A DNA stretch of 64,000 bases, taken from Myxococcota bacterium (lineage in GTDB: Bacteria > Myxococcota_A > UBA9160 > PR03). The stretch covers positions 7,525 through 71,524 of the forward strand of contig JBFIML010000005.1 in assembly GCA_041611735.1 (NCBI GenBank), read 5' to 3'. A program made the translations under genes and the position numbers. This document shows, in pieces, positions 16,700 through 34,209 of the stretch; position 1 is the stretch's first letter; every line of letters starts with the position of its first letter. The notes beneath the pieces were generated by a model. It worked only from the letters and a program-made list of their open reading frames with translations, ran no database searches and was not told the DNA's origin.

Positions 16700-18100
16700 G
16701 ATCCCCGGCGGGATCGCTTACGGCATCTATGAGTTCGTCAAGGACCTCGGCAACGAGTTGCCATGGCTCGGGTTTCTCCCGTGGTGGTCAGTTGGTTTCG
16801 TTCCGCATGCGCGTGAGCGCGGCGCGGCTTCGCTTGGCAGCGCGCTTCTCGCCGGCGCATCGAGCGTGAACCCGGCCTCGGCGTAGACGTCGTCGAGGTT
16901 GCGCGGTGCCCGCGCGGCGCGATGTCGCTCGTGCTTCTGGAGCTTGCGCAGCTTGAGCCGCGTGCGCTCCACGGCGGCGTAGCGGTACGGCTGCTGGGTG
17001 GTGAGGATGTGCCAGACGATCACGATCAGCTTGCGCGCCAGCGCAGTGACCGCGATCTGATCGCCCTTGCGGCGTCGGATGCGGTGGTAGGTCGCCGCCA
17101 GCGGCGAGCTGCTCCGCGCGATCGTGTGGGCCGCCTCGATCGCCAGCCAGCGGGCGTTGCGCGAGCCGGTCTTGGTGATGTGGCCGTAGTAGGCGGTGCC
17201 GCCGGACTGGCGGATCTTCGGTACCAGGCCGAAGTAGGCGGCCAGCTTCTGGGGGCTCGGGAAGCGGTCGATCGAGCCGATCGCGGCGAGGAAGCCCATG
17301 GCGACGACGACATCGACGCCCGGGATGGTGACCAGGAGCTTCGCGTCCGGATGGAGGCGGGCCTGCTCGAGGAGCTCGCGATCGAGGGCCTGGAGGCTCT
17401 CTTGAACGTGGCGCAGGAGCGCGGCCTGGTGATCCAGCACCAGGCGCTCGGCAGGCGGTAGCTCGAGCTCCGCGAGCCAACGGTAGCCCTTCTGGCTGAA
17501 CAGGAACCTCCCCGGGTAGCGCTGGAGGCTGCGGTTCAGCACGGCGTGGATGGTGTTCTTGGTGGCGACGGATTGGCGCCGCAGCTGGCGCCGATGGGCC
17601 ATGAGCTGGCGCACGGCCCAGGTCTCCCGGCTCGGCATCGCGACCTCCGGCAGGAAGTCGAGCCGCAGGAGCTGCGCCAGGATGTGGGCGTCCACCTTGT
17701 CCGTCTTGATCCGCGCGTAGGCGATCGCCTTGAGCGGCGCCGGCTCGGCGACCACCACGCGGTCGACGTAGCGCTCCAGGATCTGGACCAGGGCCCAGGT
17801 GTGGAAGGTCGCCTCCAGGGCGACCTCGTCGCCGCGCTCCAAGCCCCGGGCGAAGGCCTCGACGGCCTCCGGCCGGCCGCCGACGCGGAAGTCCCGGCGC
17901 TCCTGACCGTCCTCGGCCAGGCCGCAGACCTGGAGGAACTCCTTGTGGACATCGAGTCCGTAGAACATGCACACTCTCCTGCGGAGAGCCTCGGCGAAGG
18001 GTAATTGGGAAGAACGACACGTATCTATTCGCGCTCACAGCGCAGCCGCCCGAGTCGAGGGGGGAACCCAGGTAAGACATCGAGCTCGAAGCTCATGCGT
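16700..18100 (-). mobile_element. IS110-family insertion sequence (ends not determinable by eye; IS110 elements lack clear inverted repeats)
   Basis: Transposase CDS plus flanking non-coding DNA. The boundaries are approximate. Confidence 0.45.
16727..17968 (-). CDS. IS110-family (DEDD) transposase
   Basis: MFYGLDVHKEF... is the DEDD_Tnp_IS110-type N-terminus. LVTIPGVDVVVAMGFLAAIGSIDRFPSPQKLAAYFGLVPKIRQSGG matches the Transposase_20 domain pattern. The Arg-rich C-terminal tail may be read-through. Confidence 0.85.
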   Translation of the reverse strand: MFYGLDVHKEFLQVCGLAEDGQERRDFRVGGRPEAVEAFARGLERGDEVALEATFHTWALVQILERYVDRVVVAEPAPLKAIAYARIKTDKVDAHILAQLLRLDFLPEVAMPSRETWAVRQLMAHRRQLRRQSVATKNTIHAVLNRSLQRYPGRFLFSQKGYRWLAELELPPAERLVLDHQAALLRHVQESLQALDRELLEQARLHPDAKLLVTIPGVDVVVAMGFLAAIGSIDRFPSPQKLAAYFGLVPKIRQSGGTAYYGHITKTGSRNARWLAIEAAHTIARSSSPLAATYHRIRRRKGDQIAVTALARKLIVIVWHILTTQQPYRYAAVERTRLKLRKLQKHERHRAARAPRNLDDVYAEAGFTLDAPARSALPSEAAPRSRACGTKPTDHHGRNPSHGNSLPRSLTNS

Positions 18101-18554: not shown

Positions 18555-19268
18555 TCACCTGGAAGGGCGAGTCGAAGAGACGAGTACCAGCATGCCGAGT
18601 GCGCCAGCCACCACCGATCCGCCGAGGACTCCGGCCTTGGCGGCTTCGAGGCTCGCTCCTTCGAGGGCCAGGCCGGAGATGAAGAGCGCCATGGTGAATC
18701 CGATGCCGGCGAGGAGCCCGCCTGCGAGGAGCATCCCCCAGGTCACGCCACTTGGGAGGGTTGCGATCCCCGTCCGAACGACGAGGAAGCTCGCCACGAG
18801 GATTCCGACGGGTTTGCCCACGCAGAGGCCTACCGCTACGGCGATGGCGACGTCGTCCAGGCGCCGTGCCCGCCTCGCCACCCCCGCCCGCCACTTGCGC
18901 TGGTGGCGCAGGTAGCCGCGATCGCAGACGACGAGAGACGCGTCCTTGGCGAGCTCGAGGGCCACCGTATCGGGACGGCCTCGCCGCAGCACCAGCTTGA
19001 TCCCCCTCTCAGCCAGCGCCTCCGCCGTCTCCGCCAGGCCTTCGAGCAGGAACGCGAATGCACGCTCGCTGGCGTCGGGATAGCGATCGTAGAGGCCGAA
19101 TCCAACCACCACGGACTGGTCGCGTTCGTTCGCCAGCCGCACGGCGTGCTCCAGCGCCGGGTTGTGAAAGGCCCGCTGCGACTGCTGCATCCAATAGAGG
19201 ACGTACGAGCCCGAGTCGTCCGGAGGCTCGTCGCTCAAGCTGCGGATGCTTGGCTCTTCGACGCTCAC
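18555..19268 (-). pseudogene. Chimeric ORF: class II photolyase N-terminal fragment fused in frame to an NhaA antiporter C-terminal fragment
   Basis: Residues 1-~135 (YVLYWMQQSQRAFHNPALEHAVRLANE...LVVCDRGYLRHQRKWR) match the class II CPD photolyase N-terminal alpha/beta domain. Residues ~145-237 (VGLCVGKPVGILVASFLVVRTGIATLPSGVTWGMLLAGGLLAGIGFTMALFISGLAL...) match the last TM helices of NhaA. The junction lies near 18840-18865. Confidence 0.7.
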
Positions 19269-19355: not shown

Positions 19356-19769
19356 CTAGCGGGAGCCCTTGAATGGGAGCCGCATCGCCAGCTCCTGAAG
19401 TCGCGCCTCCGCCACCTCGCCTGCGCCATCCGAGGCGACCACGAGAAGATCCGGTCCGCCGAGCTCGAGCGCGACCTGGAGGCACGCGCCGCACGGCCAG
19501 GTGAGCTTGCCAGCAGTGCGCGGGGAGACGAGCGCCAGCAGCTCCGGACGGCCCAAGCCCTGGGCAACGACCGAGAAGAGGGCGGCGCGCTCCGAGCACA
19601 TCGCGAGACCCAGCGAGACGTTCTCGACCAGTGCCCCGGGGACGACCGCGCCACGATCTGTCACGACCGCCGCACCCATCTTGAAGCGGGAGTACGGGGA
19701 ATAGGCTCGTTCGAGCGCTTGCTCGGCCTGCTTCAGCGCCTCTCGGGCGCGCGCGTCTCGGACTTGCAT
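19356..19769 (-). CDS. cdd: Cytidine deaminase
   Basis: 137 aa with YSPYSRFKMGAAV, MCSERAA and WPCGACLQ zinc-ligand motifs. Confidence 0.8.
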   Translation of the reverse strand: MQVRDARAREALKQAEQALERAYSPYSRFKMGAAVVTDRGAVVPGALVENVSLGLAMCSERAALFSVVAQGLGRPELLALVSPRTAGKLTWPCGACLQVALELGGPDLLVVASDGAGEVAEARLQELAMRLPFKGSR

Positions 19770-19875: not shown

Positions 19876-19898
19876 TTCACAACCATGGAGAGATCTCG

Positions 19899-20342
19899 AT
19901 GAGTTCCAACGATCAGGTCGTGACGGCTCTGTCCAAGCTTCTCGCCGATACCGACACGGTCTACCTCAAGACCCACAACTACCACTGGAACGTGACAGGA
20001 CCGATGTTCAACACGCTCCACACGCTCTTCGAGACCCAGTACACGGAGTACGCGCTGGCCGTGGACGAGATCGCCGAACGCATCCGGGCAGTGGGGGCAC
20101 GCGCTCCGGGCAGCTACAGCGAATTCGCTGAGATCGCGTCCGTGAAGGAAGATCGTGGGTCGCCCCCGGCGATGCAGATGGTCGAGAACCTGGCCGCCGA
20201 TCAGAAGACGATCGTCATGGCGGCGCGCTCCGTCGTGGAGGCGCCCGAGACCATTGGCGACCAGGCGTCCGCCGACCTCGGCGCTCGTCGCATCCAGGTC
20301 CACGAGAAGAATGCCTGGATGCTGCGCAGCCACCTCGAGTAG
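19899..20342 (+). CDS. dps: Dps-family DNA-protecting ferritin-like protein
   Basis: 147 aa with LLADTDTVYLKTHNYHWNVTGPMFNTLHTLFETQYTE...VDEIAERI, the canonical Dps ferroxidase-site region. Confidence 0.85.
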   Translation: MSSNDQVVTALSKLLADTDTVYLKTHNYHWNVTGPMFNTLHTLFETQYTEYALAVDEIAERIRAVGARAPGSYSEFAEIASVKEDRGSPPAMQMVENLAADQKTIVMAARSVVEAPETIGDQASADLGARRIQVHEKNAWMLRSHLE

Positions 20343-20426
20343 CCCCAACACGCCGTTGCGATCGTCGATCGCGCAACGTCGCGTGGGCCTCGACCGCTAC
20401 GAGAAGGCTCGAAGCAGGGGGCGTCG

Positions 20427-21397
20427 ATGAGGAGCGGGCTGTGGCGCGACGACGCGACCCTTCGGGTGGGCATCTCCACCTGCCTCCTCGGGGAGGAGGT
20501 GCGCTGGGACGGTGGACACAAACGCCACCGCTTCCTCACGGACCTGCTCGCCGACTACGTGGAATGGGTCCCGGTCTGCCCGGAGGTCGAGATCGGCATG
20601 GGGATCCCCCGGGAGCCGGTGCACCTGATGCGACGTGAAGGGAAGATTCGCCTGCTCGGCACCAGGAGCGGGAACGACTGGACCAGCCGCATGGAGTCCT
20701 GGTCGGTGCGCCGGGTACGCGAGCTGGAGGCGCTCGACCTGTGCGGCTACGTGCTCAAGAAGGACTCGTCGAGCTGCGGCATGGAGCGGGTCAAGGTGCG
20801 CAGCGAGAAGGGCATGCCGAAGAAGGAGGGCCGCGGGGTCTTTGCCGGAACGCTCCAGGACCACGCCCCGGCGCTCCCCGTGGAAGAGGAGGGGCGACTC
20901 AACGACCCCGCGCTCCGCGAGAACTTCATCGAGCGGATCTTCGCCTACCGGCGCCTGCGCTCGCTCTTCGCGGAGCGCTGGAGCCGGGGGCGCCTCGTGG
21001 CCTTCCACACCGCCCACAAGCTCCAGCTGATGGCACACTCGCCCGAAGCCTATCGGTCCCTGGGCCGTCTGGTGGCGTCGGCGAAGGGGATTCCCCCGAA
21101 GGCGTTCCGCGCGCGCTACGAGAGCGAGTTCATGGCGGCGCTCCAGCATCGCGCGACCGCCCGCCGACACGTGACGTGCTCCAGCACTGCGTGGGCCACT
21201 TTCGCAAGCAGCTCGAGCGGGAGGCTCGGGCCGAGCTCGGCGAGCTCATTGCCGACTACCGCGCCGGGCTCGTCCCCCTGATCGTGCCCGTCACCCTGAT
21301 CCGTCACTACGTCCGGCACCTTCGGGTCGAGTATCTCGCGGGCCAGGTCTATCTCGAGCCCCACCCGAAGGAGCTCATGCTGCGAAACCATGTCTGA
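20427..21397 (+). pseudogene. YbgA-like DUF523+DUF1722 gene with an apparent frameshift near 21168-21180
   Basis: The DUF523 part is intact (VGISTCLLGEEVRWDGGHK...CPEVEIGMGIPRE). The DUF1722 part continues in another frame after ...ATARRHV (DVLQHCVGHFRKQLEREARAELGELIADYRAGLVPLIVPVTLIRHYV...PKELMLRNHV). This is either a sequencing error or decay. Confidence 0.65.
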
Positions 21398-22883
21398 GGG
21401 TCCGGAGGTCGGAGCGAGCGATGGCGGCAGCGTTGATTCCCCCGCGAAGAGGCGCCTCACCATCGCCATCGCCGGCGCCACGGGCTTCGTGGGAGAGGCC
21501 CTGTGCCGGGCCCTCGTGCCCGATCACCGCGTGATCGGGCTCACGCGCTCGCGAGAGCGCGCCGAGAGCTCGCAGCGCGACGGAGTCACCTGGCGTCGCT
21601 GCGACCTCTTCTCCCTGCGCGAGCTCGAGCTCGCCCTCGAGGGCGCGGACTACGCGATCTACCTGGTCCACTCGATGCTTCCCTCGGCGCGCCTCACCCA
21701 GGCCAGCTTCGCCGATCTCGACCTGCTGCTGGCCGACAACTTCGCGCGCGCCGCGCAGCGCTGCGGGGTGGGCCAGATCCTCTACGTCGGCGGTCTCACG
21801 CCTCCCGAGGGGCCGCTCTCGCCCCATCTCGCCAGCCGGCTCGAGGTGGAGCAGACCCTCGGCTCCCACGGCGTGCCCCTCACGGCGCTGCGGGCCGGGC
21901 TGATCGTAGGGCCCGGCGGGTCCTCGCTCTCGATCCTCGTGAACCTGGTTCGGCGGCTCCCGGCCATGATCCTGCCCCGCTGGACCGAGTCTCGGACACA
22001 GCCCATCGCGCTGGCGGACGTGGTGCGCGCTGCGCGGCACTGCGTCGGCAACCCGGAGACCTACGGGCGTAGCTTCGACATCGGCGGGCCCGACGTGATG
22101 ACCTACCGCAAGATGCTCACCCAGGTCGCGGAGGCCCTGGGGAAGCGGCGCTTCATGCTCGGGGTTCCGCTGTTCTCGCCGCGGCTTTCGCGCCTCTGGG
22201 TCACGGTCTTCAGCGGCGCTTCGGGGGCTCTCGTGAACCCACTGATCGAGACTCTTCGCCACGACATGGTCTGTGCCGAGAATCCCCTCCAGCGCTGGCT
22301 CGAGCCCGACGCCCAGGGTTTCGCGGCGTCTCTTGGTCGCTCGCTCGAGACGGGAGAGCTGGCCCCGCCGCCGCGCCACCGCCTGTTCCGGCTGGAGCGC
22401 GCCTCGCTACGGCGCACGAGCACGGTGCGTTCCGTCCAGCGGCTCGTGCTTCCGAAGGGCCGCGACGCACGCTGGGTCGCGGCGGAGTATCTGCGCTTCC
22501 TGCCGCGCTTCGTCGCCCCGCTCGTGGGCTGCCGGGTCGAGGGCGACCTCTGCCGCCTCACCCTGCGCGGTACGCCGCTGCTGCTGATGGAGATGCGCTT
22601 CGCGCCCGATCGCAGCAGCGACGATCGACAGATCTTCGACGTCGTGGGTGGGCTCCTGGTGCGCCGGGGCCCGGGCCCGCGCGGACGTCTCGAGTTCCGG
22701 GAGGTGCTAGAGCACCGCCACGTGGTCGCTGCCGTCCACGACTTCCAGCCGGCGCTGCCCTGGCCGATCTACAACCAGACCCACGCCAGGGTTCACCTGT
22801 GGGTCATGCGCGGGTTCGCGCGGCACCTGCGCCGGGTGGCTGAGGGCATGGCCGCGGCGATCCCCGCTAGTACCTCGGACTAG
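21390..22883 (+). CDS. NAD(P)H-binding (NmrA/atypical SDR-like) protein with DUF2867-like C-terminal domain
   Basis: The N-terminal Rossmann motif is IAIAGATGFVGEAL. 497 aa. The C-terminal half has no catalytic motif recognised. Confidence 0.6.
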   Translation: MSEGPEVGASDGGSVDSPAKRRLTIAIAGATGFVGEALCRALVPDHRVIGLTRSRERAESSQRDGVTWRRCDLFSLRELELALEGADYAIYLVHSMLPSARLTQASFADLDLLLADNFARAAQRCGVGQILYVGGLTPPEGPLSPHLASRLEVEQTLGSHGVPLTALRAGLIVGPGGSSLSILVNLVRRLPAMILPRWTESRTQPIALADVVRAARHCVGNPETYGRSFDIGGPDVMTYRKMLTQVAEALGKRRFMLGVPLFSPRLSRLWVTVFSGASGALVNPLIETLRHDMVCAENPLQRWLEPDAQGFAASLGRSLETGELAPPPRHRLFRLERASLRRTSTVRSVQRLVLPKGRDARWVAAEYLRFLPRFVAPLVGCRVEGDLCRLTLRGTPLLLMEMRFAPDRSSDDRQIFDVVGGLLVRRGPGPRGRLEFREVLEHRHVVAAVHDFQPALPWPIYNQTHARVHLWVMRGFARHLRRVAEGMAAAIPASTSD

Positions 22884-22914
22884 CGCGCGTTCACCCTGCG
22901 GTGAGGGTAGCTCG

Positions 22915-23442
22915 CTAGGACGCCGGCTTCTGGAGGGTCCGCTCCAACGGGGCGAGGTCGTAGCCCTTCGCCCGGATGCGAGTCAGTATCCTCTGGTATA
23001 GCGCCTCGTCCAGGGTCGGTGTGCGTGAGAGGATCCAGAGGTACTCGCGCGCCGGGTGGCCCACCACGGCCCAGCGATAGTCGGGGTCGAGCTCGATGAT
23101 CCAGTAGTGGCCCCAGAACGGCCAGAAGAACTGGACGCGAAGCCTGGCGTTGTTCGGGTCGCCCTCCGCGACCCAGGCCACACCCTCGGCGCGGCGCACG
23201 TCGCCATCCAGGGATCCGTCGCGGCACTGGTTCTCCACACGGATCCGGCCGTCCTCGCGGCGCGAGTACTCGGCCTGCGTCGCGACGCAGCCTCGCTGGA
23301 AGTACTGAGGAAAGCTCGCGATCTCGTACCAGCGCCCGAGGTAGCGATCGAGGTCCACGTCCTCGACCACCATCAGGTTGGAGGAAGCCGTCTGGCAGCC
23401 AAGAAGGACAGCAACGAGCGCCAAGGGCGCAAGCCACCGCAT
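22915..23442 (-). CDS. blc: Bacterial lipocalin (Blc-type outer-membrane lipoprotein)
   Basis: Lipobox LLGC, then DLDRYLGRWYEIASFPQYFQRGC...RVENQC, the Blc signature. Confidence 0.8.
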   Translation of the reverse strand: MRWLAPLALVAVLLGCQTASSNLMVVEDVDLDRYLGRWYEIASFPQYFQRGCVATQAEYSRREDGRIRVENQCRDGSLDGDVRRAEGVAWVAEGDPNNARLRVQFFWPFWGHYWIIELDPDYRWAVVGHPAREYLWILSRTPTLDEALYQRILTRIRAKGYDLAPLERTLQKPAS

Positions 23443-23968
23443 CGGGATACCTCCGGTCCCGTTTCGCAACGGCCCGAATCGCCGACGCCGGCACGCCCGG
23501 TGAGACACAGGCGGTTGCGGGCGAAGGGTTGGCACGGGGCGTCGGGGCCCTTGCGCAGGCTGGGCCAGTGCGTCGGGACAGTCGCCGTCGGACAGGACTG
23601 CTATCTCCGCGGGAATTCGCGTCATCCAGCCACCTCGAGTCCAAACAGCGTAACCTGCTGCTCCAGGGCTTCCAGGCTCGGGATGCAGTGCCTCAGCGCC
23701 AGGGAGTCATTTCGGGACCGCTCCGCCGCGGGCAGCTCCGCTCCTGCGCTCCCCGCGACCGTCTAGCGCTGCCTGGCGGTCCCCAGCTCCCAGATCCTGC
23801 CGCGCCTCAACGGAGTTCATCTTCCGGTTGGATGGAGAAGAGGCACCAGGTAGGCTCCGCTCGCGGAGTAGAAGGCTTCTTCCAGTTTTCCCGACTTTCA
23901 TTGCAGTCAGGACGCTGCGGAGGGCCGCCAAGTTCACATGTTCCTTCCCCAGTGAACGAGGGGTGCCG

Positions 23969-24613
23969 ATGTCCATGCAGAGCGGACCACAGGAACCCGG
24001 CTACGCGATCGGCACGGTCGCCGGCCTGACCGGCCTGGATCCCCACACCATCCGGGCCTGGGAGCGCCGCTACGGAGCCGTGAGTTTTCACAGGGACCCG
24101 CGCGGCGTGCGCCGCTATGACGATGCCGCGGTGGTGCGTCTGCAGCTCCTCAAGGCGGTCACGAATTGTGGCGGATCCATCGGCTCCATCGTGCGCCTCC
24201 CGGACGCGACCCTGCGCGAGCGCCTGGGTCGGCTCGCCTGCATGGCGGCCGACGCAGCCGTGGCTCCGGGAGGCCGCCCGAGCACCTTGGCTCTTTTCGC
24301 TCCGGGCCTCTCCTCCCAGCTTGGCGCCGGAAGGTCCCTGGGTGGCCTCCAGGTCACCGTTTCGGAGACCGACGTCGCCGGCATTCCTCGAGAAGCTCTC
24401 GGACGCGGCGTCTTGAGGTCGTCGTGGCGGATCTCCTCCGCCTCGGCTGCGAGCCTCTGCGATGCCGCGCTGCACCGCTACCTGGGCGCGGCCTCCGCCT
24501 GCGTCCGACACGAGCTCGAGACGATGCTCGAGCGCGTCTGCGAGCACGAGGGCATCCGCGTATGGCGAGGAAGCTCGATTTGGAGACCGTCTGGATCTTC
24601 GGCGATCAGCTGA
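23969..24613 (+). CDS. MerR-family transcriptional regulator (LitR/PplR1-like context; no B12-binding motif seen)
   Basis: The N-terminal HTH is YAIGTVAGLTGLDPHTIRAWERRYGAVSFHRDPRGVRRYDDAAVVRLQLL. The 3' end overlaps the next gene by 52 nt, so the true stop or C-terminus is uncertain. Confidence 0.7.
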   Translation: MSMQSGPQEPGYAIGTVAGLTGLDPHTIRAWERRYGAVSFHRDPRGVRRYDDAAVVRLQLLKAVTNCGGSIGSIVRLPDATLRERLGRLACMAADAAVAPGGRPSTLALFAPGLSSQLGAGRSLGGLQVTVSETDVAGIPREALGRGVLRSSWRISSASAASLCDAALHRYLGAASACVRHELETMLERVCEHEGIRVWRGSSIWRPSGSSAIS

Positions 24614-26067
24614 ACCGCGACATCGCGAGCCTCGAGGGCGTGGAGCCCGGGGAGGCTCGCGTCCTCATGGTGGAGAGTCAGAGCAAGCTGCGCTCGAGGC
24701 GCTGGCACCACCAGCGCCTGCATTTGGTCGTTACCGCCATGCGTCGCTTCGCCGCCGAGCTCGAGGGGGCGGGCTTCGAGGTCGACTACCGGAAGGCGGC
24801 GACCCTGGAGAAGGGCCTCGCCTCCCACCGGCGCCGCTTCCGGTCGCCGAAGGTGCGCGCCATGGAGCCCAACGGCTTTGACCTGCGGCGGCGTCTCGAG
24901 GACCTCGACGTGGAGCTCGTGCGCTCGAATCTGTTCCTCTGCCACTACGAGGACTTCGCCGGGTGGGCCAAGGGTCAGAAGCGCCTGCGCATGGAGGACT
25001 TCTATCGCTGGCAGCGGACCCGCCTGGGCTACCTGATGGAGGACGGAAAGCCCGCCGGGGGCCGCTGGAACTTCGACGCCGACAATCGCGAGCCCCCGCC
25101 CCAGGGCGAGCCGCCCTGGAGCGCCCCGCCAAGGTCGAAGCTCGACGAGCTCGACGCTGCGGTCGTCGCGGCGCAACACCAGGATCTCATGGGCGAGGCG
25201 CCCAAGGGCCTCTGGGCCACCTCGCGGCGCTCGGCCCTCGCGCGCCTGCGGCGCTTCGTGAGCCAGGAGCTTCCCCGCTTCGGCCCCCACGAGGACGCGA
25301 TGACGCGGCGCTCCTGGCATCTCGCCCACTCGCTCCTCAGCCCCTATCTGAACCTCGGTCTACTTCGGCCCGGCGAGGTCTGCGACGCCGTCCAGGCCGC
25401 CTACGACGAGGGTCGCGTTCCCATCGCTTCGGCGGAGGGATTCGTGCGCCAGGTGATCGGCTGGCGCGAGTACGTGTGGGGTGTCTACTGGCTCTGGATG
25501 CCCGAATACCGCGAGGAGAACGCCCTGGGCGCGAAGCGCGGCCTGCCGCCCGCCTTCCAGGACTCGAGTCGGACCCGAATGCGCTGTGTGGCCGAGACCG
25601 TGCGCGGCATCGAGGAGCACGGCTACGCCCACCACATCCAGCGTCTCATGGTGCTGGGCAACTTGTCGCTCCTCGCCGGCATCGAGCCCATGCAGGTCGT
25701 GGACTGGATGTGGGCCTCCTTCGTCGATGGAGCCGAGTGGGTGATGCTCCCGAACGTGCTCTCCATGGCGCTCTACGCGGACGGCGGCCGCATGACGACG
25801 AAGCCCTACGCGTCCGGCGGGGCCTACATCTCCCGCATGAGCGACTACTGCGGGGCCTGTCCCTACGATCCCAAGCAGCGCGTGGGGGACGAGGCGTGCC
25901 CCTTCACCACGCTCTACTGGGACTTCCTCGCCCGCCACGAGAAGCGCCTCGCCGCGAACCCCCGGGTCGCTCGCCAGGTCCACGCCCTGAAGCGCCTGAG
26001 AGACCTGCCGGTGGTGCGCAAGCGAGCGCGAGAGATGCTCGAGCAGCTCGATCGAGGCGGGCTCTGA
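24562..26067 (+). CDS. Fe-S bacterial cryptochrome/photolyase family protein (PhrB/CryB-type, (6-4) photolyase-like)
   Basis: 501 aa. The family pattern runs throughout (WIFGDQLN, HHQRLHLVVTAMRRFA, GGRWNFDADNRE). The four-Cys set typical of the [4Fe-4S] site is present (MRCVAE...DYCGACPYDPKQRVGDEACPF). Confidence 0.8.
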   Translation: MARKLDLETVWIFGDQLNRDIASLEGVEPGEARVLMVESQSKLRSRRWHHQRLHLVVTAMRRFAAELEGAGFEVDYRKAATLEKGLASHRRRFRSPKVRAMEPNGFDLRRRLEDLDVELVRSNLFLCHYEDFAGWAKGQKRLRMEDFYRWQRTRLGYLMEDGKPAGGRWNFDADNREPPPQGEPPWSAPPRSKLDELDAAVVAAQHQDLMGEAPKGLWATSRRSALARLRRFVSQELPRFGPHEDAMTRRSWHLAHSLLSPYLNLGLLRPGEVCDAVQAAYDEGRVPIASAEGFVRQVIGWREYVWGVYWLWMPEYREENALGAKRGLPPAFQDSSRTRMRCVAETVRGIEEHGYAHHIQRLMVLGNLSLLAGIEPMQVVDWMWASFVDGAEWVMLPNVLSMALYADGGRMTTKPYASGGAYISRMSDYCGACPYDPKQRVGDEACPFTTLYWDFLARHEKRLAANPRVARQVHALKRLRDLPVVRKRAREMLEQLDRGGL

Positions 26068-26069
26068 GA

Positions 26070-26371
26070 GCCCCATCCCCAGGGCGCCTCGACGGCTGGT
26101 ACGCCTACCGCGCATCGAAAGCCGCCCAGAACATGTTCACGCGTACGCTCGCCGTCGAGCTCGCACGGCCGGCGCAGAGCGCGATCTGCGTGGCGCTGCA
26201 TCCGGGCACCGTCGACACGGATCTCTCGCGTCCCTTCCAGCGCAGCGTCGCGCCCGTACGACTGTTCGATCCCGACCGGCCGCGCGCCAGCTCCTGGCGG
26301 TGAACGACGGCCTGACGCTCGAGCAAAGCGGGAGCTTCCTGGCCTGGGACGGCGCGCCGATCCCCTGGTAG
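26070..26371 (+). pseudogene. Short-chain dehydrogenase remnant (C-terminal half only, plus a frameshift near 26285)
   Basis: YRASKAAQNMFTRTLAVELAR...CVALHPGTVDTDLSRPF carries the SDR YxxxK active-site region but has no Rossmann N-terminus. The tail QLLAVNDGLTLEQSGSFLAWDGAPIPW-stop lies in another frame. Confidence 0.6.
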
Positions 26372-26398
26372 GACGAAGGGACGGGTAGGTCCCCTGGG

Positions 26399-27631
26399 TC
26401 AGCGCGCTGACAGCAGGCGCACGCGGCTCAGGCGAACCCAGGAGGACGGCGACCTCAAAGCAGGCCAGGCCAGCTGACGCGCGGCCCGGTGAAGACGCCG
26501 TGCAGCGGCGGGGGCGGCGTCCCGCACGGACCGCCGGTCGATCTGCGCCATCACCAGCTCGAACACCCCCTCTTTTGCGGCCGACAGCGGTGGCCCTGCC
26601 AGGGCGAGCTGCCCGGCGACCAGAAAGCAGGAGAGGTCGCCGAAGGAGACCAGGGTGGGCTTGCCGGCGGGGCGGAAAGGCCGCAGCGAGCTCGGGTCGA
26701 GAAGCCGGCGGACGTTTCGGGCGGCGTGACGTCCCATGTCGAGCGCATGGTAGGCCTGCTTCTCGAGAGGCGAGGGGAGCTCCGCGGCGTCGCCCGCGAC
26801 GAAGACCTCCGGAGCGACCGCGCTCCTCAACGACGCTTCGACCGGCGCCCAGGCTCCCGGCTTCGGGGCGAGCCCGGAGGCGGCCAGCACGGGGGGCGCC
26901 GTGGGACCGCCCGTCCAGATCGTGGCCGCCGAGGGGAGGATCCGCCCCCCGGCAAGCGCCACGGCGCCGGCTTGGACCTTCGAGACGGCCGCGCCCGTGT
27001 GGAAGTGAACGTCGAAGCCTCGGCACAGGCGCCGCACGTGCCGATCCAGGCTCGGAGGCGCTTCCGGCAGCAGGCGAGCCCGAGCCTCGACGAGGTGGAT
27101 CCGGAATGCGCTGCTCTGGCGCCAGCGCCTCAGCATCTCTCCCAACGCCTCGACGCCCTCCAGGCCCCCTCCCACGATCACGACCTCGTGCGGCCCGTCC
27201 TCGGTAGCCAGCTCCTCGAGCCGTCGGCCGATCCGTGCGCATTCGTCCACGGACTTGAAGAGGAGGGCATGGGTCTCGACACCCGGGACGCCATGGGTGG
27301 CGTTCACGCCGCCGAGGGCCACGATGAGCGCGTCGTAGGGGAGCGGCCGGCGATCCTCGAGGTGGACGCGCCGCTCGGCGAGGTCGATGCCTTCGACTCC
27401 GGCCCGCACGAAGCGGTGACCGGCATCGCGCACGATGCGATCGCGGGGGAGCCGGAGCAGGCGAGGCGTCTTCACGCCCGACACGAGCTCGTGGATGTTC
27501 GGCAGGAACTCGAAGTGGCGGGTACGGTCGACGAGCGTGACACGCCATTCAGCGGGTAGCTCGGCCGCGGCGGCGAGACCGGCGAAGCCGCCGCCGAGGA
27601 CCACGACGCGGGGGGACGCGAGGCGTGTCAC
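26399..27631 (-). CDS. NDH-2-like FAD-dependent pyridine nucleotide-disulfide oxidoreductase
   Basis: VVVLGGGFAGLAAA and VVIVGGGLEGVE are the dinucleotide-binding motifs, and VFVAGDAA is also present. The GTG start at 27631 overlaps the upstream stop (GTGA). The long Arg-rich N-terminal extension in the track is rejected. Confidence 0.7.
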   Translation of the reverse strand: MTRLASPRVVVLGGGFAGLAAAAELPAEWRVTLVDRTRHFEFLPNIHELVSGVKTPRLLRLPRDRIVRDAGHRFVRAGVEGIDLAERRVHLEDRRPLPYDALIVALGGVNATHGVPGVETHALLFKSVDECARIGRRLEELATEDGPHEVVIVGGGLEGVEALGEMLRRWRQSSAFRIHLVEARARLLPEAPPSLDRHVRRLCRGFDVHFHTGAAVSKVQAGAVALAGGRILPSAATIWTGGPTAPPVLAASGLAPKPGAWAPVEASLRSAVAPEVFVAGDAAELPSPLEKQAYHALDMGRHAARNVRRLLDPSSLRPFRPAGKPTLVSFGDLSCFLVAGQLALAGPPLSAAKEGVFELVMAQIDRRSVRDAAPAAARRLHRAARQLAWPALRSPSSWVRLSRVRLLSAR

Positions 27632-28620
27632 TCCGTGTCCCCGAGCATTCGTGCGCCCAGCGCGAGCCCACTGGTCCACGCGCTCTCGACCCGATCGCCC
27701 CCGCACCAGTCCCCGCAGGCGCCCAGGCCCGCGGCTTCGGCGTAGAGGTGCGAAGCGGGGAGCGGACGCGTGACGCGGGCGAAGCGCCAGCGCTGACCCG
27801 CCAGGTGCTTCACGGCGGGAAGTGGACGACCCAGTGTAGCCCCGAGGGCGGAGACGAGATCGCGCGCGAAGCTCTCCGGCTCGGTCTCGAGATAGGTCGC
27901 GCTCCAGCCGGCAGCCGCGTGCAGCACCCAACGTTCGCCTCCGCCTCGCTGGGGCTTGGAAGAGTCGCGGGCCACCCAGGAGAGCGGGCTGGCCTCGACG
28001 AACGCTCCGTCGAAGGCTGCCTCGACGTCGGCCTCGAAGCCGACCATGGCTGCCAGGCATGGCGCCATCTCGGCCTCGGAGGCGCGCGCGGCGAGCTCGG
28101 GCACTGGCGCGAGGAGCGGCCAAGCCTGGGGCGCCGGCGTGGCGACCGCCACGGCCCCGAACGGCCCGTGGGACTGCCCGTCCGCGTCGCGGAGCGACCA
28201 GCGCCCCGCTTCGCCTTCGAGCGCCTGGATGCGGACGCCGCAGCGCACATCGAGCGTGCGCGCCAGGTGCCGCGCCAGACTGCTCATTCGCGGAATGGCG
28301 ACGAACCGCTTCGCGCTCGACGGACGCACGGCGACGCTCCCGCCGGCGAGATCCACGATGCGACCGGTCCACGGGGCGACGACGCTCTCCCCGACCCAGC
28401 CGTGGGCGGTCTTCGCGAACTCCGGATCCCGGGCGGTGAAGTACTGGGCGCCGTGGTCGAAAGCGCCGGCATCGCTGCGACGTGTGGAGATGCGACCGCC
28501 CGGCGCTCGCGCCTTCTCGAAGACTACGACCGCCGCGCCGGCCCGGGCCAGGGTGCTCGCACAGGCGAGTCCGGCGACGCCCGCGCCAACGATCGCGACG
28601 CTTCGCGCCGTGCTCGTCAC
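27628..28620 (-). CDS. NAD/FAD-dependent oxidoreductase (renalase-like, COG3380-type)
   Basis: VAIVGAGVAGLACASTLARAGAAVVVFEKARAPGGR is the N-terminal FAD motif. 330 aa. The GTG start overlaps the upstream stop. Confidence 0.65.
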   Translation of the reverse strand: MTSTARSVAIVGAGVAGLACASTLARAGAAVVVFEKARAPGGRISTRRSDAGAFDHGAQYFTARDPEFAKTAHGWVGESVVAPWTGRIVDLAGGSVAVRPSSAKRFVAIPRMSSLARHLARTLDVRCGVRIQALEGEAGRWSLRDADGQSHGPFGAVAVATPAPQAWPLLAPVPELAARASEAEMAPCLAAMVGFEADVEAAFDGAFVEASPLSWVARDSSKPQRGGGERWVLHAAAGWSATYLETEPESFARDLVSALGATLGRPLPAVKHLAGQRWRFARVTRPLPASHLYAEAAGLGACGDWCGGDRVESAWTSGLALGARMLGDTE

Positions 28621-29402
28621 AAGGGGTTGCCGCAGACGCGCTCGTAGGCCCCGCGCACGTCGTAGCTGCCGCCGAGGGCGCCCAGGTGATCGTAGAGGGC
28701 GGCCAGGTAGCAGCCGAGGGCCAGGAAGTTCGGGTGGAGCGACGCGCCGGCGTCGCGGCAGCGAACGAACACGTCGTGGAAGGACGTCTGGAAGCTCTTC
28801 GGGTCGAACTGCACCTCGCGTTGGTCGCCGTCGCCGAAGTGGTGCCGGAAGGAATCCCGCGCGGGCTCGAGTCTGAGGTCGGCGAGGGCCGCGTCGAAGA
28901 GCTCGTCGTCGCCGGAGTAGAAGCCGGCGTAGACCCGGCGTATCGCGTCGAGGAAGGACGCGTCCCAGCGGATCCAGTAGGGCCCTGGGTGCCAGACCAG
29001 GGTCTCACCGCCGCCCAGGAAGCGGTCGAGGCGCAGGTCGATCACGGCCGACTCGTGGGCCACGAGCTGCCCGAAGTAGATCTCCAGCACGCGCTGCCCG
29101 CGGGCTCGACGTCCGGAGTCGTCCAGGTCGCGGTGCGCATCGGGCTCGGCCGCCTCGCCCCCCGCGTAGAGCTCCACCGCCACGCCTCGTCGCTCGAGCG
29201 CGGCCTCGACCTCCTCGGCGAGGTCGCGAAAGCCGGACCGGTCGGAGGCGTTGCCGAGCAGCTCGCGCCCCTGACGCAGCAGCGCCCGGGCGGGCATCAC
29301 GTCGAAGAAGGAGGGCGACACGAAATCCGCGAGCTGCTTCCACTCCGCACCGCCCAGCGTGCGGCGGATCAGACCCTCGGCGCTGCGAGCCCAGCGGAAC
29401 AC
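28617..29402 (-). CDS. Hypothetical protein, first gene of a three-gene overlapping operon; family not recognised
   Basis: Ordinary protein composition (e.g. RVLEIYFGQLVAHESAVIDLRLDRFLGGGETLVWHPGPYWIRWDASFLDAIRRVYAGFYSGDDELF). A candidate GTG start at 29402 has GGAGGA upstream, and ATG alternatives lie further in. Confidence 0.5.
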   Translation of the reverse strand: MFRWARSAEGLIRRTLGGAEWKQLADFVSPSFFDVMPARALLRQGRELLGNASDRSGFRDLAEEVEAALERRGVAVELYAGGEAAEPDAHRDLDDSGRRARGQRVLEIYFGQLVAHESAVIDLRLDRFLGGGETLVWHPGPYWIRWDASFLDAIRRVYAGFYSGDDELFDAALADLRLEPARDSFRHHFGDGDQREVQFDPKSFQTSFHDVFVRCRDAGASLHPNFLALGCYLAALYDHLGALGGSYDVRGAYERVCGNPL

Positions 29403-29462
29403 ACCAACGAGGGTTCCTCCGGGTCGACCCCCCGTCAAGGTCTGGACAGCTATGTTCTTCTG

Positions 29463-30422
29463 GTGCCCAGGGAGCCGCAAGTCAGACGCGAGGCGGACCG
29501 TGTTGCCGCGGCCGTCGCCGGTCGCAGAGCCGAGCGCTGCTGCAAGTTCGAGCGCACGAGCCGCCTCGTGCTGGCTACACTCATCGGCGTCGCTTGCCTG
29601 GCGGCCTACGCGGACGACGTCGCCCGAGGTGACGCGGCGTGGGCCGGCCGCGCGGAGGGCGAGCGGGAAGGGCGCCCGATGCCCGGGCCCATCCGCGAGG
29701 CCGTGCGCGCTTACGAGAGCGCGCTCGCGGCGAGCCCCGAGAGCCTGGAAGCGCGCTGGAAGCTGCTTCGCGCGCTCCACTTCGAGGGAGAGTTCGCCGC
29801 GCAGGAAGCGGAGGACAAGCGCACGGTCTTCGGTCGAGCCCGGGAGGTCTCCGAAGAAGGGCTGGGCCTGCTGGCAGACCAGGTCGGCGCCGGCGTGCGG
29901 CTCGACGACCTGGAGACCGGGGACGTCGCGAGTCGCCTCGCGGCCTCGGGCTTGCCGCCGACCGGGGTGGCACGGCTCTACTTCTGGTCGGCGATCAACT
30001 GGGGAGCCTGGAGCCAGCAAGTCGGCCTGCTCCGGGCGGTCCGGCAGGGAGTGGCGAATCGGCTGTACCGGTACACGGAGATCGCGATCGCGCTCGAGCC
30101 CGACTACGACGAGGGAGGCGCCCTGCGTCTCCTGGGCCGGTTGCACGCCGAGCTGCCCCGGGTGCCCTTCGTATCGGGCTGGGTCGACCGGAGGCAGGCG
30201 CTTCCGCTGATCGAGCGAGCCCACGCCCTGGCCCCGAACAATCCCGGCAACCGCCTGCTCCTGGCCCTCACCCTCCTCGACCTCGCTCCCGAGCGGCGCG
30301 CCGAGGCGCTGGGGCTCCTGGAGCAGGTCCAGGAGCTGACGCCCCGTGCCTCCATGCGCGTCGAGGACCTCGCCATGCGCCGGGAGGCCCGGGAACGCCT
30401 CGCCACAGAGCGGGGCGGCTGA
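29463..30422 (+). CDS. Secreted helical-repeat (TPR-like, possibly TatT-like) protein
   Basis: The hydrophobic signal is LVLATLIGVACLAAYADD, followed by helical repeats (LEARWKLLRALHFEG..., YFWSAINWGAWSQQVG..., LLLALTLLDLAPERRAEALGLLEQV). The GTG start at 29463 is inferred because there is no in-frame ATG upstream of the signal peptide. Confidence 0.5.
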   Translation: MPREPQVRREADRVAAAVAGRRAERCCKFERTSRLVLATLIGVACLAAYADDVARGDAAWAGRAEGEREGRPMPGPIREAVRAYESALAASPESLEARWKLLRALHFEGEFAAQEAEDKRTVFGRAREVSEEGLGLLADQVGAGVRLDDLETGDVASRLAASGLPPTGVARLYFWSAINWGAWSQQVGLLRAVRQGVANRLYRYTEIAIALEPDYDEGGALRLLGRLHAELPRVPFVSGWVDRRQALPLIERAHALAPNNPGNRLLLALTLLDLAPERRAEALGLLEQVQELTPRASMRVEDLAMRREARERLATERGG

Positions 30423-30436
30423 GCTAGACCTATCCC

Positions 30437-31312
30437 ATGAAGAAGGCCACGGCCCAGGCCGTCCTCTCGATCCCGGTGATCCTGCTGGTCGCGGCCGCCG
30501 TGGGCTGGGCGGGGAGCCAGGGCGGGCAGCGGTTCGGGGCGGTGCCGGTCTTCGCGCTGTGCGGCGCCTTTTGCTTCGCCCTGAACTGGCTGGTCTTCGT
30601 TCCCTCCTACGCCGCCCACACGGAGCGTTACTTCGACCTCACCGGCAGCCTCACCTACCTCGGAGCCATCGCCTGCGGGGTCGCCCTGGGAAGCCGTGAT
30701 CCGCGCGCGCTGCTGCTGGCGGTGCTGGTCGGTGTCTGGGCGCTACGCCTCGGCAGCTTCCTGTTCCGGCGCATCCGCCGCGACGGCGTGGACCGTCGCT
30801 TCGACGCGCTCAAGGTCGACTTCACGCGCTTCCTTTTGACCTGGACGCTCCAGGGCCTGTGGGTCTTCCTCACCGTCTCGTGCGCGCTCGCCGCCATCAC
30901 GGCAGCGGTGCCGACGCCCCTGGGCCCGACGGCGGCGCTGGGAGCCGCCGTCTGGATCGTCGGCTTCGCGATCGAGGCCATCGCCGACCGCCAGAAGGCA
31001 GCCTTCCGGGGGGATCCGGCGAACCGCGACCGCTTCATCGCCACGGGTCTGTGGGCCTGGTCGCGCCATCCCAACTACTGCGGGGAGATCCTGCTCTGGA
31101 TCGGGGTGGCGCTGATCGCCGTCCCTGCGCTCTCGGGCTGGCAGCTAGTGACGCTGATCTCCCCGGTCTTCGTGTACGTCCTGCTGACCCGCATCAGCGG
31201 GATCCCGCTTCTCGAGTCGCGGTCCGATGCCAAGTGGGGCGACGACCCGGACTACCAGGCCTACAAGGCACGCACGCCCGTGCTGTGGCTCCGGCCCCCG
31301 GCCTCGAGTTGA
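30437..31312 (+). CDS. DUF1295 (steroid 5-alpha-reductase/ICMT-like) membrane protein
   Basis: Polytopic, with the family motif GLWAWSRHPNYCGEILLWIG. Confidence 0.75.
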   Translation: MKKATAQAVLSIPVILLVAAAVGWAGSQGGQRFGAVPVFALCGAFCFALNWLVFVPSYAAHTERYFDLTGSLTYLGAIACGVALGSRDPRALLLAVLVGVWALRLGSFLFRRIRRDGVDRRFDALKVDFTRFLLTWTLQGLWVFLTVSCALAAITAAVPTPLGPTAALGAAVWIVGFAIEAIADRQKAAFRGDPANRDRFIATGLWAWSRHPNYCGEILLWIGVALIAVPALSGWQLVTLISPVFVYVLLTRISGIPLLESRSDAKWGDDPDYQAYKARTPVLWLRPPASS

Positions 31313-32652
31313 GCCCGACGACCGTCCGCCATCCCCCTCTCCGGCTCGCCACCTATGCGCTTCCCTCCCTGGTCAGCTCCGTGGCCGCGCTGCCCCTGGC
31401 GCTCTTCGTCCCGGCGTTCTACGCCGACGACCTCGGCGTGCCGCTGGCGGCCGTCGGCATGGCGATCGCCGCCTCGCGCCTGCTCGACGTCGTCACGGAC
31501 CCGCTGATCGGCATCGCCAGCGATCGGCTGGCGCTCGGCTGGGGGCGGCGCAAGCCGTGGATGGTGCTCGGGACGCCGCTCTTCGCCGTGGCGCTGTGGC
31601 AGATCTTCGTGCCGGGCGAGACCGCGAGTGCGGGCAGCCTGCTCGGCTGGTCGGCGCTCCTCTACCTCGGCTTTACGCTGATCGACCTGCCCCACAAGGC
31701 CTGGGGCGCCGAGCTCTCCCCCGACTACGACGAGCGCTCCCGCATCACGAGCTGGCGAGAGGGCCTCTCGGCCGTCGGCCAGGTGGCGCTCCTCGCCGTC
31801 CTCGTGGCGTGGGCCGCCGGAGGAGTCAGCGACGCAGCCGAGCAGCTGCGGGGCATCGCGCTGGTGGTCGTGATCGCGCTGCCGCTGCTGGTGGCCGCGG
31901 CAGTGATGGGTGTTCCGGAGGGCCCACGAGAGGGCTTCGCCCACGAGCGCCGTGGCATCTTCGAAGGTCTTCGCCTGGTCGCCCGCAACCCGGCCTTCCG
32001 CCGCATGATCGGCTGCGTGGTCTTCTTCGTATCCGGGATCGCGATCCAGGGCACCCTGCATCGCCTCGTCCTCGCCGATGTGATGCACGACGAGGGGCGC
32101 TTCCCGCTGATGCTCCTAGTCGAGAATCTCGCCACCCTCGCCGCGGTGCCGGTCTGGCTGCGCACCTCGCTCGCAACGGGCAAGCACCGCGCGCTGGTGG
32201 CGGCCGCGCTGTGGCTCGCGGTCTTCAGCGTCCCCCTCGTCTTCCTGCGCGAGGGCGACACGGCGGCGTTGATCGTCCTCATCGCGATCCGGGGCTCGAG
32301 CTTCGCCTCGATCCTGTTCCTCGCGAACTCCATCGCTGCAGACGTGATCGACCTGGACACGCTCGCGTCGGGCGAGCAGCGCTCGGGCCTCTTCTTCGCA
32401 GTCTGGGGCATGACCACGAAGCTGTCCCTGGCCCTCGGCGTCCTGCTCGGGACGGCTCTGCCGGCAGCGTTCGGCTACGACCCGTCCGTGGAAGGCGCAG
32501 CGCCCGCCGTCCAGGCCCGACTGATGGCGTTCTATGGCGGGGTCCCCGCGCTGCTCATGACGATCGGGGCGCTCTTCCTGCGCGGCTTTCCGGTCACCCG
32601 CGAGCGTCACGCCGCCGTGCGGGCTGAGATCGCGAGACGCACGGGCTCCTAG
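31309..32652 (+). CDS. MFS transporter, glycoside-pentoside-hexuronide (MelB-like) type
   Basis: RLLDVVTDPLIGIASDRLALGWGRRKPWMVLG is the GPH signature, with 12 hydrophobic segments. The TTG start overlaps the upstream TGA (TTGA). Confidence 0.7.
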   Translation: MSPTTVRHPPLRLATYALPSLVSSVAALPLALFVPAFYADDLGVPLAAVGMAIAASRLLDVVTDPLIGIASDRLALGWGRRKPWMVLGTPLFAVALWQIFVPGETASAGSLLGWSALLYLGFTLIDLPHKAWGAELSPDYDERSRITSWREGLSAVGQVALLAVLVAWAAGGVSDAAEQLRGIALVVVIALPLLVAAAVMGVPEGPREGFAHERRGIFEGLRLVARNPAFRRMIGCVVFFVSGIAIQGTLHRLVLADVMHDEGRFPLMLLVENLATLAAVPVWLRTSLATGKHRALVAAALWLAVFSVPLVFLREGDTAALIVLIAIRGSSFASILFLANSIAADVIDLDTLASGEQRSGLFFAVWGMTTKLSLALGVLLGTALPAAFGYDPSVEGAAPAVQARLMAFYGGVPALLMTIGALFLRGFPVTRERHAAVRAEIARRTGS

Positions 32653-32741: not shown

Positions 32742-33149
32742 CTAGCGCGGATCCAGCCTGAGGAACTGTCTCGGCGCGAAGCCGGTGAAGACGTAGCCGA
32801 CCAGCGGAAACCCCGACTCGTCGAGAAGGCGTCTGCGTTCCTCCTCGCTGACAGGGATTGCGCGGTAGTCAGTGATCTCGCCCCTGCGGGTCACACTGAC
32901 ATCTGGATTCTTGAGCGCGCGGTGGTACCACGCGCGCGGCCAGTGGTTCGCAGAGACGTAGAGCCGACCGTCGTGGTCGAGGGGCGATAGGACCCGCTCG
33001 TAGGACTTCCCGTCCGTGCCGGTCGTGGTGATGACGATCGTCTCCACCCCGATGTTCTCCGGCTGAAACACGACTAACGCGGTTATGCAGCCGGTGTGAG
33101 CAGCCGCGAGAATGCAAAGGCTCAGGGTGGCAACGTATCGGAGGTGCAT
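32742..33149 (-). CDS. Small lipoprotein-like protein with weak DUF385/split-barrel (deazaflavin-dependent nitroreductase-like) resemblance
   Basis: The signal with Cys is LSLCILAAAHTGC. The DGRLYVSANHWPRAWYHRALKNPDVSVTRRGEI..AIPVSEEERRRL pattern is similar to DUF385 proteins. Confidence 0.4.
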   Translation of the reverse strand: MHLRYVATLSLCILAAAHTGCITALVVFQPENIGVETIVITTTGTDGKSYERVLSPLDHDGRLYVSANHWPRAWYHRALKNPDVSVTRRGEITDYRAIPVSEEERRRLLDESGFPLVGYVFTGFAPRQFLRLDPR

Positions 33150-33281: not shown

Positions 33282-33473
33282 CTAGAAGCGCCTCTCGACG
33301 CCCAGGATGGGGGTGCGCTCGGGCTCGCTCTCCGCATCCTGTCCGGACGAGCGCCGGGCCGACCTGGCCGCTGCGTCGAAGCCGGCGAGCACCTGCCGGG
33401 TAAGCTGCTCCGTCCTCCCCGCCCGATAGGTCGCGGTTCCGGGGACGGCCATCGCCTTGCTGGGCTTCGGCAT
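33282..33473 (-). pseudogene. Outer-membrane beta-barrel / TonB-dependent-receptor-like C-terminal fragment
   Basis: Ends ...[24 protein letters not shown]...ILGVERRF-stop. The terminal aromatic residue after an alternating pattern is typical of OMP C-termini, and no upstream body is present. Confidence 0.4.
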
Positions 33474-33703: not shown

Positions 33704-33755
33704 GGCGGCTCGGATCGCGGCGCTCGAGAACACGGTCCGGTTCCCTCCTCAGGGA

Positions 33756-34166: not shown

Positions 34167-34209
34167 GGCTCTGTGTCGCGAAATCGCGCCCGCGTAACTA
34201 GGCGAAATG

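Follow-up and report, generated by a model that had tools for sequence, protein, structure and literature searches.

The stretch of DNA considered here (64,000 nt, hereafter the window) belongs to contig JBFIML010000005.1 of a Myxococcota bacterium (assembly GCA_041611735.1, GTDB lineage Myxococcota_A; UBA9160; PR03), and contains a 19.1-kb genomic island (15140-34256) inserted at a tRNA-Thr(CGU) gene. A first-pass annotation had described the cargo of this island as a mobile regulon for light/UV and oxidative stress; we consider the island as probably a decaying mosaic of photoprotection and oxidative-stress modules, and not as a self-contained, transferable light regulon. Genes in the window were called using frame plots and hidden Markov model (HMM) scans against Pfam and NCBIfam, and tRNAs using ARAGORN and Rfam. 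Comparisons were performed with the rest of the assembly (G000, 4.09 Mb in 118 contigs, resembling a metagenome-assembled genome, MAG) and within a set of 193 genomes of the order, in which the host family is represented by 17 genomes. Coordinates are positions in the window unless a contig is named (C6, C50 and C60 for this assembly). The frame of the island and its two central genes are as follows.

15140..15187, no strand: attL, displaced copy of the 3' half of tRNA-Thr, 46/48 identical to 34209-34256
15263..16561, + strand: tyrosine integrase, P4-type, 432 aa, apparently intact (Phage_integrase 2-170/172, E 9e-24; Arm-DNA-bind_3; SAM-like)
16727..17974, - strand: IS110-family transposase, after the integrase (Pfam DEDD_Tnp_IS110, Transposase_20)
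23969..24613, + strand: degenerate LitR/CarH-like MerR open reading frame (ORF), 214 aa (Pfam MerR_1 helix-turn-helix, HTH; tblastn of P0006, nucleotide alignment)
24562..26067, + strand: PhrB/CryB-type Fe-S bacterial cryptochrome/photolyase (FeS-BCP), (6-4) photolyase family, 501 aa, intact (Pfam DPRP E 5.5e-53; PDB matches)
33756..34016, - strand: HTH_17 (AlpA/Xis-like) protein, just inside the right repeat (PF12728, E 2.7e-11)
34209..34285, - strand: tRNA-Thr(CGU) at 34210-34285 with attR at 34209-34256 (ARAGORN, Rfam, repeat search)

The 48-bp direct repeat that delimits the island (15140-15187 and 34209-34256, 46/48 identical using blastn-short) has no third copy in the assembly, and its two mismatches fall in the anticodon-loop part of tRNA-Thr. 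Together with the integrase and the tRNA gene, this repeat confirms the integrase-bearing, tRNA-targeted element proposed in the first-pass annotation. Three features by which tRNA-integrating islands are recognised were found, namely a complete integrase catalytic domain, a tRNA 3'-end repeat at both borders and a content absent from the corresponding site of relatives. In five relatives tRNA-Thr is still paired with an aminotransferase IV gene, and unrelated DNA lies past it. Only distant homologs of two cargo genes (NmrA-like and unk28) were found in G005, about 12 kb from the tRNA-Thr/aminotransferase IV site. A clean empty site was sought in relatives and none was found, the left flank being non-syntenic at genus-level distances. 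Base composition across the island junctions is host-like, and the tRNA was the sole match in an Rfam scan of the region.

From this anatomy and from what is established for such islands, the P4-type integrase would recombine the element with the 3' half of tRNA-Thr(CGU), rebuilding the tRNA and leaving the 48-bp displaced copy at the far end, and the HTH_17 protein is likely the excision factor. The element resembles other tRNA islands with P4-type integrases in its Arm-DNA-binding domain, tRNA 3'-half repeat, regenerated tRNA, AlpA/Xis-like gene and accessory cargo, as well as in tandem accretion beside an older integrase stump. It differs from them in a photoprotection cargo that is largely pseudogenised, in an integrase located at the end far from the tRNA, and in the absence of transfer genes.

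Related integrases were found at tRNA-Thr half copies with other cargo, which indicates that elements with this backbone form a family that targets tRNA-Thr and varies in cargo. The complete genome G022 has a 61% aa-identical integrase adjoining a tRNA-Thr half copy of about 50 nt, the intact tRNA-Thr being 112.6 kb away; in G026, an 86% nt-identical integrase opens a contig exactly at the end of the att repeat, and the DNA downstream differs. Counterparts of the HTH_17 gene (75-76% nt identity) adjoin related integrases in G026 and lie close to the tRNA end in G022. Region 1040397-1153121 of contig C1 of G022 (L130, L108), with an Xis-like gene near its tRNA end, could represent a further, very large member of this family. 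On the left of the island, what remains of a second tyrosine integrase, a C-terminal stump (14799-15236), abuts attL, and leftward of this stump lies a region of 62-66% G+C, lower than the surroundings. Stump and lower-G+C region indicate that the tRNA-Thr site was used more than once, and suggest that an older element once stood at the same tRNA.

The MerR ORF, sole regulator of the island, was compared at the DNA level with its best full-length relative (P0006, 325 aa). The 120 database relatives listed for this 214-aa ORF are nearly all 305-369 aa long, and most match its first ~60% only. Residues 1-138 of P0006, comprising the HTH and the linker, are intact and in frame (23969-24379). Frameshifts at about 24380 and 24412 then place residues 139-148 in the second frame and residues 150-165 in the third, codons 166-291 (126 codons) are deleted, with the junction near position 24461 in a short GAGCC repeat, and the native C-terminal 34 codons (residues 292-325) are found back in the first frame (24461-24562). 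The whole sensor region (residues 139-291 of the ~325-aa parent) is either frameshifted or deleted. The stop codon is also lost and the ORF runs 52 nt into phrB, so that the overlap between the two genes is a by-product of decay: the first-pass annotation placed the regulator correctly, before and overlapping phrB, but missed its lesions. A Logan contig assembled from a separate run (L113, SRR29257403) covers 21127-25470 of the window (4.3 kb, 99.8% identity, 9 substitutions, 0 gaps), and carries the same MerR allele (protein P0005) with the same lesions, as well as the frameshift of the RudS-type gene described below. Because this independent assembly shows them gap-free, these lesions are considered as real alleles and not as assembly errors.

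The HTH of the island MerR aligns with class I LitR (hhalign E 1.6e-34, 88 columns, 61% identity), its best PDB matches are 3whp and CarH 5c8d, and its best NCBIfam match is the CarH N-terminus; past column 104, hhalign detected no homology to class I LitR. In Pfam scans of 47 full-length relatives no B12 domain was matched, nor any other domain past the HTH. The C-terminal 240 residues of the family gave no Pfam match, and P0006, the one member compared with NCBIfam, was matched in its HTH part only. In the alignment of these 47 members C262, E263, C264, H267, C285 and H296 are invariant. In the AlphaFold model of the parent (pLDDT 87.8), the HTH is followed by an alpha/beta domain that is REC/flavodoxin-like and then by a C-terminal domain that is helical and carries C-E-C-x2-H...C...H in the family, and Foldseek searches with this model retrieved CarH and receiver domains. 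As class I LitR matches the first 88 columns only, the parent family is LitR/CarH-like in its DNA-binding domain and has another sensor. The absence of a B12 motif reported in the first-pass annotation is therefore correct, but the sensing mechanism that it left open has another answer, since the family never had a B12 domain and the island copy has no sensor.

Full-length members of the family adjoin Sdh-like operons at L093, L094 and L116/L117, and probably at L128. Photolyase genes are nearby at L093 and L094, and neither Sdh-like operon nor photolyase is present at L114 and L115. At none of the relatives' loci examined does phrB directly follow a full-length MerR gene. P0006-type genes (L093, L094, L116, L117, L127, L128) are often located beside an Sdh-like three-gene set with a short-chain dehydrogenase/reductase (SDR) and a methyltransferase gene, and GTCTA/TAGAC repeats occur upstream of some of them. 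It is possible, if rather doubtful, that the ~325-aa parents form an undescribed class of the LitR/CarH family (on a comparison with LitR classes I and II), which may sense redox, metal or light in a new way, and that the island allele is a sensor-less derivative that leaves phrB constitutive.

No conserved operator and no sigma-70-like promoter were found upstream of the MerR gene (23443-23968). The perfect inverted repeat GTTCAC-N14-GTGAAC (23932-23957, 12 nt before the MerR start) occurs at about chance level and is not shared upstream of full-length homologs. It was rejected as a MerR operator, and the palindrome search suggested by the first-pass annotation for this interval yields only this chance-level 6-bp repeat. 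The host has its own light-response locus on C6, where a B12-type CarH gene (ERHELG and W..EH motifs) is divergent from a cyclobutane pyrimidine dimer (CPD) photolyase gene, an intact RudS gene and a P450 gene. A candidate CarH operator, TGTCAA-N11-GACA-N4-TTGAC, is conserved in the CarH-phr intergenic regions of three genomes (G000, L148, L144). The exact box occurs once in G000, at the native locus outside the window (C6 84902-84931), and the island contains no CarH box when up to 3 mismatches are allowed; the host B12-type CarH does not appear to control the island. The LOV signature GxNCRFL has no match in the G000 genome, a relevant absence, since light sensing by class II LitR proteins depends on a short LOV partner (PMC9758184).

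In comparison with LitR/CarH regulons (class I, the B12-dependent CarH of Thermus and Myxococcus; class II, of Pseudomonas, where PplR/PmlR control phrB, ufaM, folE and cryB; PMC9758184), the island is similar in its HTH, close to class I LitR, and in its photolyase, PhrB and RudS neighbours. The parent MerR family differs in lacking B12 domains and in having the REC/flavodoxin-like and helical Cys/His domains, and the island copy in lacking that sensor region, a recognisable operator and a LOV partner. Of the modules that characterise LitR/CarH proteins, the HTH is present, and neither the B12-binding module (class I) nor the 4-helix bundle (class II) was found.

The PhrB gene that follows is intact. 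Its product aligns end to end with structures of the family (9hnk, E 7e-125; PhrB 4dja, E 1.8e-113, residues 8-497; CryB 3zxs, E 2.3e-111) and keeps all four 4Fe-4S cysteines in the alignment to 9hnk (mrCva, dyCgaC, eaCpf), in agreement with the first-pass assignment. Judged from sequence, it resembles PhrB of Agrobacterium (4DJA) and CryB of Rhodobacter (3ZXS) in its full-length alignment (E ~1e-113), DPRP domain and four cysteines, and differs in that its closest relatives are Acidimicrobiia-type proteins and a small clade in the host's order. Among the 91 sequences of a PhrB tree, that of genome G165 is the partner of the island copy (82-83% aa identity, SH-aLRT 100); both belong to a seven-member clade that comprises members from four families of the order and is placed among Actinomycetota sequences. 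Of the 193 genomes of the order, 7 (this one included) have this PhrB type, which was found in none of the 16 other genomes of the family. None of the 80 closest public PhrB loci (55-68% identity, mostly Acidimicrobiia) shares the island neighbours.

A native PhrB paralog (C60, ~7150-9140, ~40-47% identical to the island copy) lies beside a Dps-like gene and is split over two frames, being either a pseudogene or a sequencing error. Given this split, the island PhrB is the sole intact FeS-BCP in the assembly and is not redundant. With its open frame and conserved residues, it could still perform (6-4)-type photorepair using FAD and a 4Fe-4S cluster. PhrB-type genes are also present on 90 plasmid records, 23 of them mobilizable or conjugative. 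On Sphingobium baderi pDE3 (NZ_CP013267.1), as in the island, an FeS-BCP gene rides mobile DNA, there between two IS21 copies; the plasmid genes differ in belonging to plasmids or composite transposons and not to a tRNA island, in their identity (43-46%) and, for pDE3, in the absence of an accompanying gene set.

The remaining cargo is composed of the following genes.

18555..19268, - strand: chimeric ORF of two remnants, class II CPD-photolyase N-terminal domain and NhaA C-terminus (DNA_photolyase 1-115/164; Na_H_antiport_1 281-374/374)
19356..19769, - strand: cytidine deaminase (Cda), 137 aa (Pfam dCMP_cyt_deam_1)
19899..20342, + strand: Dps, 147 aa, intact (Pfam Ferritin 3-137/142)
20427..21397, + strand: RudS-type gene (TudS/DUF523 and DUF1722), pseudogene (Pfam matches split over two frames)
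21390..22883, + strand: NmrA/epimerase-like protein, 497 aa (Pfam; C-terminal half without a Pfam family)
22915..23442, - strand: Blc lipocalin lipoprotein, 175 aa (Pfam Lipocalin_2 1-145/146; signal sequence with LLGC lipobox)
26085..26379, + strand: remnant of an SDR gene, limited to its 3' end (79.5% nt identity to the final ~290 nt of an adh_short gene in L093)
26399..29402, - strand: three-gene operon of unk28 and two flavoproteins (Pfam, NCBIfam)
26399-27640, - strand: Pyr_redox_2 flavoprotein of this operon (Pfam, NCBIfam)
27628-28620, - strand: NAD_binding_8/amine-oxidase-like flavoprotein of this operon (Pfam, NCBIfam)
about 28617-29402, - strand: unk28 of this operon, without Pfam or NCBIfam match
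29568..30422, + strand: TPR protein (Pfam TPR_19; alternative start 29463)
30437..31312, + strand: DUF1295 membrane protein, 291 aa (PF06966, E 2.4e-60)
31309..32652, + strand: MFS_2 transporter (Pfam MFS_2, E 4e-71; start uncertain, 31285-31381)
32742..33149, - strand: F420H2_quin_red-like small protein (PF04075, E 2.8e-6)
33457..33861, + strand: ORF resembling joined remnants (first 24 residues weakly like a redoxin C-terminus, Pfam Redoxin E 0.17)

At least six genes are damaged within 19 kb (MerR, RudS, class II photolyase, NhaA, SDR and, as a weak case, a redoxin). The RudS-type gene switches frame at about 21172-21180, inside DUF1722 (tblastn with the native intact copy, G000:C6 86459-87415), so that the DUF523/DUF1722 domains of the first-pass annotation are present, though in a gene that is not intact. 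The class II photolyase remnant is without its FAD-binding domain, profile positions 1-115 of the N-terminal domain being what remains; its identification was upheld by its best PDB matches, the class II photolyases 2xry and 3umv, and that of the SDR remnant by the adh_short alignment listed above. The SDR remnant also has 78% nt identity to G022, where an unk28 homolog directly adjoins the matching stretch. The ORF at 33457-33861 may be a fusion of two gene remnants, one of them from a redoxin/peroxiredoxin.

Dps, Blc, DUF1295 and the two flavin oxidoreductases were recognised by HMM matches, as first annotated. The NCBIfam Dps/DpsA models align end to end with Dps, with scores under the curated cut-offs, and the Blc model match is likewise under its cut-off. 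The NmrA-like assignment was retained and that of DUF2867 withdrawn: PF11066 gives no match at E<=10 with the whole protein or with its C-terminal half, and a 35%-identical paralog in L151 matches it at 1.7e-34. The unk28 family has 65 members among 5.8 billion proteins, the named ones coming from Polyangiales/Myxococcales-type MAGs. unk28 precedes the amine-oxidase-like gene in the island, in G165 and in L151, an arrangement that is not found at its nearest homolog in G005. Judging by intact frames and conserved residues, Dps could still protect DNA, and Blc, DUF1295, the MFS transporter and the unk28-flavoenzyme operon could still work.

The cargo has its closest relatives in other families of the order, at no fewer than five separate loci, and its modules meet at gene fragments. 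For the central part, a locus of G165 (JANQFK010000046.1, another family of the same order) comes nearest; its genes run NmrA-like...Sdh-like, then full-length MerR, a group of four that includes a photolyase gene, PhrB, FtsH-like, SDR, HiPIP, Pyr_redox, amine-oxidase-like and unk28. Amino acid identities between the island and this locus are 72% for the NmrA-like protein (489 aa in L093/G165), 75-88% for MerR, 75% for Pyr_redox, 65% for the amine-oxidase-like protein and 77% for unk28, and the island centre looks like a condensed form of a G165-type neighbourhood. Other modules have their best matches elsewhere: DUF1295 has 84% aa and nt identity to G153:C31, MFS matches G165:C31 (89% nt identity) and G153:C31 (86% aa identity), RudS and TPR match G153:C18 (57% aa identity for TPR, to the gene after RudS in the CarH-phr-rudS operon), Cda matches a gene adjoining a PhrB paralog in G026 (85% aa identity), Dps matches G003 and Blc matches G003:C108 (84% nt identity). 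An environmental scaffold from ENA (L151) has 89.9% nt identity over 27886-29441, covering unk28 and flavoprotein; it ends within the flavoprotein gene at 27886, and at 29441 similarity stops, a sigma-70 gene being located there where the island has TPR.

Core genes have 70-80% nt identity between G000 and the same comparison genomes. Against this baseline, PhrB (83%) and DUF1295-MFS (84-89% nt) are closer than core, and the other cargo is ambiguous.

The photoprotection theme of the first-pass annotation is nevertheless considered as real, because the relatives' copies of cargo genes adjoin class I CarH/LitR and photolyase genes. In G153:C18, class I CarH is divergent from phr-rudS-TPR-NmrA-like; in G153:C31, a PhrB paralog, a class II photolyase (intact, 75% aa identical to the island remnant) and an NmrA-like gene stand together; in G003:C108, a class II photolyase and an amine-oxidase-like gene are followed by Blc; and in G022, Blc adjoins CarH, with unk28 nearby. 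The cargo modules (G165-type, DUF1295-MFS, Blc, RudS-TPR, Cda/Dps) are ones that relatives carry in chromosomal CarH/LitR-photolyase neighbourhoods. RudS, a TudS desulfidase fused to DUF1722, removes the 4-thiouridine modification of tRNA and is encoded in light-responsive operons (PMC11417400). The island gene has its DUF523/TudS and DUF1722 architecture and a photolyase-type neighbourhood, and differs in being frameshifted in DUF1722, the host's intact copy following the CPD photolyase gene on C6.

In Rhodobacter sphaeroides, the sigmaE-ChrR singlet-oxygen regulon includes a cluster of photolyase and cyclopropane fatty acid (CFA) synthase genes with SDR and amine oxidase genes. The island likewise brings together genes for a photolyase, an SDR and an amine-oxidase-like protein, as a set against photo-oxidative stress, and differs in having no extracytoplasmic function (ECF) sigma/anti-sigma pair, CFA synthase or DUF1365.

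A working mobile light/UV regulon, in which light acts through MerR on phrB and its neighbours and the set moves as one block, would account for a gene content that fits light regulons, for the profile-level identity between the MerR HTH and that of class I LitR, for an ORF that is open directly before phrB and persists as an allele in a second sample, and for a backbone that looks excision-competent. It is nonetheless unlikely. Control by light conflicts with a destroyed sensor in the only regulator, with the lack of operator, promoter and LOV partner, and with the absence of the host CarH box from the island. Movement as a block is contradicted by modules whose nearest relatives lie at separate loci and in separate genomes, joined at fragments, and by a frameshifted RudS gene and four or five other genes reduced to stumps. 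Synteny of the MerR-phrB pair, proposed as a check in the first-pass annotation, fails likewise, with 0/80 PhrB loci sharing neighbours and full-length MerR never directly before phrB.

Some observations weigh against the interpretation as a decaying mosaic. The truncated MerR repressor could still bind DNA, with its ORF open, its HTH undamaged and its allele present again in a second sample; the N-domain of PmlR2, a class II LitR, forms dimers when isolated (PMC9758184). The NmrA-like gene and the three-gene operon have only 75-76% nt identity to G165, equal to the core baseline, and their horizontal origin is supported by their position inside the island and not by sequence distance. The single-base frameshifts of the native phrB on C60 come from a MAG-like 118-contig assembly and may be sequencing errors, and the loss of light control is one that we infer.

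A gene graveyard, in which no cargo gene is expressed or useful and the intact-looking ORFs have merely not yet decayed, would fit the many lesions in 19 kb, the IS110 insertion and the native copies of RudS, Dps (C50, 63% identical to the island Dps), DUF1295 and unk28 elsewhere in the genome. We hold it to be less probable still than the regulon: at least 10 long island ORFs combine a strong host-like bias in G+C at third codon positions (GC3, 0.85-0.95) with full-length domain matches, PhrB keeps its four Fe-S cysteines, the three-gene operon is 90% nt identical to its environmental relative L151 and undisrupted over the part covered, and the apparent breakage of the native FeS-BCP paralog leaves the island copy non-redundant. 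That the contig is a chimera of several populations, with fragments and frameshifts as errors, is what a 118-contig MAG-like assembly might lead one to fear, but is very improbable given the 4.3 kb repeated with both sets of lesions in an assembly from another run, the att repeats that frame the island next to the integrase and the host-like composition across its junctions.

Under the decaying-mosaic interpretation, expression of the cargo would no longer be light-gated by the island's own regulator, and the island would add spare protective genes to the host, notably its only intact FeS-BCP. The concept is not new, as stress-protection islands are well known and PhrB-type genes occur on the plasmids mentioned above. 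What the island adds is an example, from a little-studied lineage, of photoprotection genes carried by a tRNA-targeted island, a (6-4)-type Fe-S photolyase gene among them. Of two useful leads, the better is the CarH-like MerR family, uncharacterised so far, whose C-terminal domain is of the Cys/His kind; the other is the clade-specific CarH operator motif. For the organism, the island is cargo that reached a host with a CarH regulon of its own, where the redundant regulator, RudS and CPD photolyase decay and the non-redundant PhrB is intact.

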